A stretch of DNA of 64,000 bases. Origin: a virus. The notes beneath the pieces were generated by a model, which was not told the DNA's origin, did not search any database, and was given only the letters and a program-made list of their open reading frames with translations. Position 1 is the stretch's first letter. Every line of letters starts with the position of its first letter. The translations under genes and the position numbers were made by a program. Below are positions 7,060 through 8,512 of this stretch, in pieces. Where the stretch lies: IMG/VR virus record IMGVR_UViG_3300031963_000013; one strand, 5' to 3'.

Positions 7060-7146
7060 GGAGGTTTGGCAGAGCGGTCGAATGCGTCGGTCTTGAAAAC
7101 CGAAATACGGGAAACTGTATCTGGGGTTCGAATCCCTGAGCCTCCG
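7060..7146 (+). tRNA. tRNA-Ser(UGA)
   Basis: GGAGGTT/AGCCTCC acceptor, TCGGT-CTTGAAA-ACCGA anticodon arm, long variable arm, GGTTCGAATCC. Confidence 0.95.
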
Positions 7147-7149
7147 CTG

Positions 7150-7223
7150 GGACCCTTAGCTCAATTGGTTAGAGCACCTGACTCATAATCAGGGGGTCGT
7201 AGGTTCAAGTCCTACAGGGTCCA
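7150..7223 (+). tRNA. tRNA with CAU anticodon, probably Ile2 (lysidine) rather than Met
   Basis: GGACCCT/AGGGTCC acceptor, CCTGA-CTCATAA-TCAGG; body resembles bacterial tRNA-Ile2. Confidence 0.9.
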
Positions 7224-7443
7224 CAAAAATAAACTCATGAAAAAAGTAAAAATAACTGAAGAGGACTTACAGATAATTCAGTACTATTTAAAAGAAGCAA
7301 ACGAATACGGACTTGCAGTTGAGGTTGTGGCTTGGGCTCTTAAAAGCATGAAGGAGAATTCGCAAATAAGCGTATCAACAGCTATCGCTTTGGGAGCTTC
7401 AGAATGGGTAAAATAAAATCAGTAACCAAAAACCAAACATAAG

Positions 7444-7593: not shown

Positions 7594-7602
7594 TACGGAA
7601 AC

Positions 7603-7757
7603 TATCGGGTGGTGAAAAGCGTACGCACGGCATACACACCCTCTCGTCTCGAGGGCGCTGATTAGGAAACAGGTAACAGGATACGGGTTGACCACGAAGC
7701 ATGCTAATTTGTCTTTTACTGAATCCCAGTGTGAAGGTTCGAATCCTTCCCCGATAG
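7603..7757 (+). ncRNA. oversized tRNA-like RNA
   Basis: TATCGGG/CCCGATA acceptor, GAAGG-TTCGAAT-CCTTC T arm, 20-nt D loop, CCCTC-TCGTCTC-GAGGG arm, about 77-nt variable region. Confidence 0.75.
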
Positions 7758-7770
7758 CAAAAACTAAAAT

Positions 7771-7871
7771 AGTCAGGTGGCGAAATTGGTAACGCAAGCC
7801 TTCACAGAGCAACTGAACCGCAAGTGAGTGAAGCACGTAGGTTCTTACAGGTTCGAATCCTGTCCTGACTA
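7771..7871 (+). ncRNA. tRNA-scaffold RNA copy 1 (anticodon arm replaced)
   Basis: AGTCAGG/CCTGACT acceptor, Leu-type D arm, ACAGG-TTCGAAT-CCTGT T arm. Confidence 0.8.
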
Positions 7872-7874
7872 CTA

Positions 7875-8081
7875 TGAGTAAGAGATACTCAGAGTCTTTA
7901 ATTCAAGACTTAAACAATGAATAGGGTATTGGACTGGACATCCTTAAACGCCAGTCTCTTTGGAATAAAGCTAGGTAACAGAGGCTCCAAGTAGTTTGAC
8001 TAATTTTAAGAGGGTAAGACCCGCAGGTTTATTGAAAGAAAGAAAACCGATACATCTACTCACCTGTAATCTCAAGGTGGG
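7875..8081 (+). ncRNA. putative structured ncRNA between tRNA scaffolds
   Basis: No convincing ORF; several stems and complementary terminal loops GAGAT/ATCTC. Confidence 0.55.
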
Positions 8082-8087
8082 GAATAT

Positions 8088-8185
8088 AGTCAGGTGGCGG
8101 AATGGTAGACGCAGTTGATTACAACCCCGAGGTAAAATCTTGGCGCAAAAAGAGTTGATTACAGGTTCGAATCCTGTCCTGACTA
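8088..8185 (+). ncRNA. tRNA-scaffold RNA copy 2
   Basis: Same acceptor and T arm and near-identical D arm as copy 1, unrelated middle. Confidence 0.8.
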
Positions 8186-8202: not shown

Positions 8203-8400
8203 ATGAGATGTAAAATTATTGACAACAGAAAAGAAGGACAACAAAGAATAATTAGTAAGTATCTTTTCATTCCTAAAAGGATTGGAGATGAACGTAGATG
8301 GTTGGAAAGAGTATCTATCAAACAAACTTTATATAGAATGTTTGACGTAACTTGTGGTTCATGTTGGTGGGAATGGAGAGATACTGAGTGGGTAGATTAA
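8203..8400 (+). CDS. hypothetical protein
   Basis: AAAAGTTATG start; KYLFIPKRIGDERRWLE motif. Confidence 0.65.
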   Translation: MRCKIIDNRKEGQQRIISKYLFIPKRIGDERRWLERVSIKQTLYRMFDVTCGSCWWEWRDTEWVD

Positions 8401-8405
8401 AACAT

Positions 8406-8512
8406 AGTCAGGTGGCGGAATTGGTGTCAATTAAGTTACTCAAAAGGTTGTAAAGCTTGAATGTGGTACATTCTGTTGCTACTTAATATAGGTTCGAATC
8501 CTGTCCTGACTA
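8406..8512 (+). ncRNA. tRNA-scaffold RNA copy 3
   Basis: Same acceptor, near-identical T arm; middle closed by ATTAAGT/ACTTAAT. Confidence 0.75.

Follow-up and report, generated by a model that had tools for sequence, protein, structure and literature searches.

A conserved RNA gene, probably rich in pseudoknots, set between the tRNA genes of large uncultured phages

Ornate or stable RNAs produced from phage tRNA clusters are a known kind of molecule, with rnaC and rnaD of phage T4, GOLLD, and ROOL among the described examples. Both T4 RNAs come from the tRNA region of that phage, and a review gives their roles as unknown (PMC3014915). GOLLD (RF01998) and ROOL are phage or prophage RNAs that occur near tRNA islands, are rich in pseudoknots, and have kissing loops that hold them together (PMC12286853). 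Another RNA, manA (RF01745), is found in aquatic phages, is pseudoknotted and shorter than 200 nt, and was recently shown to self-assemble (bioRxiv 10.64898/2026.07.01.735769). Here, we describe a 215-nt element from a phage tRNA array that is of the same general kind. Judged by sequence comparison, the family to which it belongs appears not to be homologous to T4 rnaC/rnaD, GOLLD, or ROOL and appears to have a fold of its own.

The resemblance to the T4 RNAs is one of placement. The stable RNAs known as species 1 and 2, rnaC (139 nt) and rnaD (119 nt), likewise lie on the same strand as a phage tRNA gene and directly after it; in the T4 record, the start of rnaD lies 1 nt past tRNA-Arg, and that of rnaC lies 6 nt past rnaD. 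This position within a phage tRNA cluster, on the tRNA strand, is shared by our element and by about 100 of its homologs. However, the T4 RNAs are shorter, stand at the end of the array instead of between tRNAs, and belong to another phage group. Furthermore, a covariance model of our family (R1) had no match in the rnaC/rnaD region of T4 (69000-76000) at E-values up to 10. GOLLD and ROOL are three to four times larger (500-800 nt versus 208-290 nt) and are known to have kissing loops that form between molecules; neither had an Rfam match in our sequence or in eight further loci with the RNA. While manA has been described in 5' untranslated regions, the 215-nt RNA sits between tRNAs, and cmscan returned no manA match at E-values up to 5. 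The element is similar to tmRNA (RF00023) in its probable tRNA-like processing and its run of H-type pseudoknots, but it has no tRNA-like domain and no tag reading frame, and its ends are separate hairpins with no acceptor stem. Neither ARAGORN nor Rfam calls a tmRNA in positions 7872-8086. Finally, no RNase P model matched the element at E-values up to 5.

The window, by which we mean the whole 64,000-nucleotide stretch of viral DNA that was analyzed, is a phage contig that codes for a baseplate J-like protein, a thymidylate synthase, a T5orf172 protein, and a fused SbcCD-like nuclease. The same phage is also present as a 109,830-bp JGI contig, and an identical thymidylate synthase is encoded in 24 contigs. 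The element sits among small plus-strand genes together with tRNA-Ser and tRNA-Met (7060-7224). Nearby are three elements that score with the Rfam tRNA model (7771-7871, 8088-8185, and 8406-8512), the first two of which flank it. An earlier note, based on the letters of this DNA and its open reading frames, had proposed a noncoding RNA at 7875-8081 bracketed by two tRNA scaffolds. The sequence and coordinates were as described there, and the element in fact occupies the entire gap between the scaffolds. No open reading frame longer than 26 codons stays within this gap on either strand, in line with the note's finding of no convincing one. Our results (Table 1) support a compact, conserved RNA gene in place of spacer DNA.

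Table 1. Positions of the RNA gene, its predicted structural elements, and its flanks in the window.
Feature	Position	Strand	Support
tRNA-Leu-like scaffold 1, upstream flank (context, outside the RNA)	7771-7871	+	Rfam tRNA model, 42.8 bits
Whole RNA gene, 215 nt	7872-8086	+	R1 match, 234 bits, model positions 1-215
P1 hairpin, 7875-7879 with 7887-7891, loop AAGAGAU	7875-7891	+	5 of 5 pairs with at least one double change; 99% of cells paired
P2 hairpin, 7893-7898 with 7905-7910	7893-7910	+	6 of 6 pairs covary
Pseudoknot I, P2 loop 7901-7904 (AUUC) with 7919-7922 (GAAU)		+	Permutation test
Pseudoknot II, 7923-7927 (AGGGU) with 7940-7944 (AUCCU) in P3 loop	7923-7957	+	Permutation test
P3, 7931-7937 with 7951-7957	7931-7957	+	7 of 7 pairs covary, up to 6 pair types
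P4, 7960-7963 with 7987-7990		+	Covaries
P5, 7969-7972 with 7983-7986, separated from P4 by an AAUAA internal loop		+	Covaries
Pseudoknot III, P5 loop 7977-7979 with 7994-7996, plus P4/P5	7960-7996	+	Permutation test
Conserved unpaired UGAC	7997-8000	+	Columns invariant or nearly so (alignment A2)
P6 hairpin, GUAAGA-type loop (GAUG in other members)	8012-8022	+	Covarying stems under both loop types
P7 hairpin (GGTTT/AAACC), 8026-8030 with 8044-8048	8026-8048	+	5 of 5 pairs covary; 92.5% of cells paired
P8 hairpin, 8059-8065 with 8075-8081	8059-8081	+	7 of 7 stem pairs covary; 96.7% of cells paired
Loop-loop complementarity, GAGAU 7882-7886 (P1 loop) with AUCUC 8069-8073 (P8 loop)		+	99% of cells pairable
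tRNA-Leu-like scaffold 2, downstream flank (context)	8088-8185	+	Rfam tRNA model, 43.4 bits

The scaffolds are unusual in themselves. All three have identical acceptor, D, and T arms of the tRNA-Leu type, while their cores of about 45-60 nt replace the anticodon and variable arms and are mutually unrelated. The constant arms of scaffold 1 are common to more than 120 IMG/VR contigs. Specifically, the 22-nt 3' arm recurs there, often several times per contig, in elements of 54-182 nt. Since leucyl-tRNA synthetase does not read the anticodon, such Leu-like RNAs might be chargeable. Two other features of this region are worth recording. A 65-codon open reading frame (ATG at 8204, stop at 8400) is located between the end of scaffold 2 (8185) and the start of scaffold 3 (8406), so that a small mRNA could be excised by tRNA processing, comparable to the tRNA punctuation of mitochondria. 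In addition, positions 7602-7759 hold an outsized tRNA-like element of about 158 nt that has a different acceptor stem and relatives at 75-82% identity in IMG/VR loci L011, L071, L034, and L085.

When the 215-nt sequence was folded alone, its energy (-47.8 kcal/mol) was no better than that of shuffled sequences (-45.3 ± 4.7 kcal/mol; z = -0.53). Single-sequence thermodynamics shows no structure, and support for a fold comes from the comparison of homologs. The first relatives emerged when nhmmer was run against loci that had been fetched for the scaffold arm, and these matches were full length at once. The homolog search proposed in the earlier note was also run on IMG/VR, where its two anchor words retrieved 9 and more than 118 contigs. 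With R1, the covariance model that we built, scans gave 101 and then 24 matches, nearly all spanning model positions 1-215. Altogether, there are about 125 full-length homologs in IMG/VR phage contigs, with E-values down to 1e-68 and lengths of 208-290 nt (median, 215 nt); 87 of the 101 sequences in the first set are distinct. The family thus recovered is conserved, is read from the plus strand, and belongs to large uncultured phages. The assignment of strand follows from the frequent G-U pairs in the stems, which would be C-A mismatches on the opposite strand.

The breadth of the family bears directly on whether there is an RNA gene at all. One could argue that the element is neutral spacer or codes for a small protein, given the insignificant fold of the single sequence and a conserved ATG at 7874 that opens a 16-codon frame. 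Against this stand about 125 conserved homologs with compensatory changes, among which no reading frame is conserved and the longest stop-free stretch has a median length of 38 codons. The 16-codon frame itself was rejected: a 1-nt indel after P1 shifts it among relatives, and as we read the alignment, agreement between the peptides is confined to codons overlapping P1. We therefore regard the spacer or coding interpretation as scarcely credible.

Five large phage records that we examined (181-318 kb, 76-100% complete, three of them at least 96%) had one R1 match apiece. Outside of IMG/VR, the family was essentially missing from the collections searched. A blastn search of the element against 50,697 records of cultured or deposited phages gave only two short matches at chance level. 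The most conserved 18-mer had 11 matches in 185,579 prokaryote genomes (one per species), which by our estimate does not exceed chance expectation; only one of them (L244) looks real, and it is cut off at the end of a 4.4-kb MAG contig. The earlier note had not recognized the family, and cmscan against Rfam 15 (4227 models) likewise gave nothing overlapping 7872-8086, either at gathering scores or at E-values up to 5 with permissive filters. In the eight other loci searched against Rfam, there were only tRNA matches and one tmRNA, none of them on the element. A survey of structured RNAs in IMG/VR has 8,495 unnamed candidates (PMC10690425), and our family may be one of these.

Some members depart from the standard form. 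One locus (L154) has two copies, at 1728-1940 and 2437-2644; the second is highly diverged (42 bits), and its P1 and P8 loops differ, with only about three complementary bases. A miniature derivative occurs at L157 (4139-4180), where the P1 hairpin runs directly into P8 and the intervening part is gone, apparently through a deletion between two TACTCA repeats. It still lies directly 3' of a tRNA-like 3' end.

Covariation statistics were obtained from a model-based alignment of 87 distinct homologs (alignment A4). Standard pairs filled 89.2% of the cells, compared to 75.4% after shuffling, and the covariation score was 0.356, compared to at most 0.10 when the 3' partners were slid by one to three columns. 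The earlier note had made its RNA reading depend on homologs and covariation; besides the homologs, we found double (compensatory) changes in 48 of the 53 modeled pairs. Helices P1, P2, P3, P4, P5, P7, and P8 each have support from covariation. Among the stems that the note had drawn, P1, P2, P8, and GACTGG/CCAGTC (P3) all showed compensatory changes in the 87 homologs. Its GGGT/ACCC hairpin (P6) is also present, with stem variants that include GUG/CAC, GGU/ACC, AGGA/UCCU, GGG/CCC, and AGGG/CCCU.

The core of the proposed structure fared differently. The note had closed a multiloop with a stem between 7915-7922 and 8027-8034, for which the mean duplex energy was only -0.9 kcal/mol. We rejected this stem, as its 5' strand pairs with the P2 loop (z = -17.2) and its 3' strand pairs within P7, and three serial pseudoknots took the place of the multiloop. 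Long-range pairings between repeats, namely, TACTCA (7886-7891 and 8057-8062) and GACT (7907-7910 and 7998-8001), were also discarded, since in the alignment, covariation follows the local partners in P1 and P2.

Support for the crossing helices came from an alignment-free test in which the duplex energy of two segments from the same sequence was compared to that of the same segments paired across sequences, with 200 permutations. For all three pseudoknots, none of the 200 permutations was as good as the true pairing: the P2 loop with 7915-7925 (z = -17.2), the segment 7911-7930 with the P3 loop (z = -8.6), and the P5 loop with 7990-7998 (z = -9.7). Controls between unrelated loops, by comparison, gave z values of +0.2 to +0.9. 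Each crossing site had dozens of compensated helices that differed in sequence, including more than 20 for pseudoknot I and such variants as ACAC/GUGU, AAUCCU/AGGAUU, and AGUUCU/AGAACU for pseudoknot III. The same duplex-energy permutation test gave no signal for additional contacts of the P7 loop with J5/6 or with the P6 loop. Taken together, these data support a fold that runs from P1 through three consecutive H-type pseudoknots and the conserved UGAC to P6, P7, and P8.

An architecture of this sort invites the idea of a catalytic RNA, either a self-cleaving ribozyme or one that acts on tRNA. Pseudoknots combined with invariant unpaired bases (UGAC, AAUAA, and CUAC) are typical of active sites, and the element lies among tRNA genes. 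Yet no known ribozyme class was matched in Rfam at E-values up to 5, the ends of the element fall at tRNA borders, where host enzymes cut in any case, and the data show no sign of a cleavage site. We consider catalysis very unlikely.

The two ends of the RNA carry complementary loops. The note had pointed to complementarity between GAGAT in the first hairpin and ATCTC in the last loop; this complementarity is kept across the family, with nearly all members able to pair. The only changes are A to G opposite U and C to U opposite G, apart from one double change from U-A to C-G (L041). No helix of the RNA comes close to these terminal loops in constancy. A part of the apparent invariance of the P1 and P8 hairpins is built in, because most loci were retrieved with P1 or P8 words. 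An extra scan with a word outside both loops yielded about a dozen further members, and those with a readable P1 loop had only A to G changes in its pairing bases. With the case resting on conservation, wobble-compatible changes, and one double change, the predicted P1-P8 contact is well supported as a pairing. As to whether the loops would meet within one molecule or between molecules, our guess leans somewhat toward the former.

If the contact formed between molecules, the P1 loop of one RNA would pair with the P8 loop of the next, giving rise to head-to-tail rings, cages, or filaments. There is precedent for such behavior. The packaging RNA (pRNA) of phage phi29, a phage RNA of similar size, has two mutually complementary loops that pair between molecules, "hand in hand," to form a ring; it is not associated with tRNA genes and works on the packaging motor. 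A kissing loop of ROOL that was at first taken, on the basis of covariation, for a tertiary contact turned out to form between molecules, and both ROOL and GOLLD lie near phage tRNA islands (PMC12286853). Similarly, manA RNAs of less than 200 nt from cyanophages form 8-, 10-, and 60-mers (bioRxiv 10.64898/2026.07.01.735769). In our family, the two loops are at opposite ends of the molecule and are complementary to each other and not to themselves, and they are conserved beyond any helix, as would be expected if every molecule must fit every other. Nevertheless, sequence comparison fits pairing within or between molecules alike, a single interface of 5 bp is weak, and the constancy of the loops owes something to how the homologs were retrieved. 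In addition, the RNA has no homology to pRNA, ROOL, GOLLD, or manA. For pRNA in particular, cmscan gave no match to the Rfam model Phage_pRNA at E-values up to 5, and nothing about the 215-nt RNA suggests a role in a packaging motor. We view self-assembly as a possibility to be taken seriously, albeit one that is on balance doubtful.

The genomic setting of the family is highly regular. Among the IMG/VR homologs, the RNA gene is nearly always 0-4 nt from same-strand tRNA or tRNA-like genes on both sides. For the 101 homologs of the first set, a T-loop motif was present within 30 nt upstream in 83 cases, a tRNA called by ARAGORN ended exactly at the first base of the model in 49, and one started 1-4 nt past its last base in 53. 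Within 1.5 kb, there were on average 4.9 tRNAs on the same strand and none on the opposite strand. The identity of the neighbors is not fixed. Flanking species include Asp, Glu, Gln, Leu, Gly, Ser, Pro, and others, and Leu-like scaffolds are neighbors in 18 upstream and 19 downstream cases. Thus, flanks of the scaffold type, which the note had described, hold for the window but not as a rule for the family, as ordinary tRNAs flank the RNA in about half of the cases. The scaffold arm was also found in 27 of 50 records that carry the RNA and in 11 of the 12 records that are at least 56% complete, which suggests that the RNA and the Leu-like scaffolds travel in the same large phages.

No protein-coding gene accompanies the RNA with similar regularity, as even the most widely shared cluster of neighboring proteins occurred in only 16 of 100 loci. 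Leading the list were an RNase H-like protein, HNH, ClpP, DUF932, and a cyclic-phosphate-processing receiver domain. A protein with the last of these, a domain linked to RNA repair (PF20274), was seen repeatedly close to the tRNA arrays, at L196 (2633-3082) and eight other loci. A tmRNA (Rfam, 68.5 bits) is located at 5724-6218 of L071, in the large tRNA array of a phage that carries the RNA. A contig whose thymidylate synthase is identical to that of the window (L253) has a diverged copy of the RNA at 80-293 (162 versus 234 bits), directly before tRNA-Ser(tga), and is without the approximately 4 kb that, in the window, lie between the RNA and tRNA-Leu(tag). The different location of this copy indicates that the RNA gene moves as a module, and the difference in layout indicates that the tRNA region is reshuffled among close relatives.

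One reading of such a setting is that the element acts only in cis, as a folded spacer that guides or insulates the processing, folding, or stability of neighboring tRNAs and is functionless once released. The gene is always flush between same-strand tRNA genes, and because its neighbors vary freely, it could serve any tRNA. But in these arrays, most neighboring tRNAs are only a few bases apart and have no such element between them; it occurs in single copy in each of the five large records even though arrays at other loci of the family hold many tRNAs. Moreover, three pseudoknots and many invariant unpaired bases exceed what a spacer would need. A purely cis-acting function is unlikely in our estimation.

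We favor, and think it fairly probable, that the family is a stand-alone, compact noncoding RNA gene of large uncultured phages, one that is cotranscribed with the tRNA array, excised from it, and active in trans as a stable particle. No promoter- or terminator-like site was detected inside 7872-8086. Together with the flush, same-strand tRNA setting, this makes it economical to suppose that the RNA is cotranscribed with the array and then freed by RNase P and the enzymes that process tRNA 3' ends. The RNA would be transcribed within the tRNA operon, with no promoter or terminator of its own, and cleavage by RNase P at the 5' end of the downstream tRNA would set its 3' end; in the window, the 5' end of scaffold 2 would be that site. 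The 5' end of the RNA would in turn be set by 3'-end processing of the upstream, CCA-less tRNA. In T4, the 3' ends of tRNAs are processed by RNase Z/BN. This view accords with the note's suggestion that the placement suits excision by tRNA processing, since the family adjoins a tRNA or tRNA-like gene within a few bases at both ends. The P1 and P8 loops would then pair and clamp the two ends together, creating a closed particle that resists nucleases. Our guess is that during infection, this particle acts in trans on a host component linked to translation or tRNA.

A bolder version of the same gene can be imagined, in which pairing of the terminal loops builds rings or cages from triply knotted 215-nt protomers, making the family a self-assembling, RNA-only machine for which the tRNA operons of large phages serve as factories. 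We put this forward tentatively, as an outcome that we do not expect but would not be surprised by. A variant in which the family is a new class of ribozyme is less likely than this machine.

So far, phage tRNA arrays have mostly been viewed as kits for codon supply. The family described here, with its approximately 125 members, joins GOLLD, ROOL, T4 rnaC/rnaD, and the Leu-like scaffolds in suggesting that these arrays also express elaborate RNAs other than tRNAs, which would be freed by the tRNA-processing enzymes of the host. With 215 nt, three predicted pseudoknots, and a conserved loop-loop contact, the complexity of the RNA is on par with that of a ribozyme or riboswitch, and its size is suited to cryo-EM, probing, and mutational work. 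If the RNA assembles or binds a host factor, this would be a sign of a new layer of phage-host conflict around translation.
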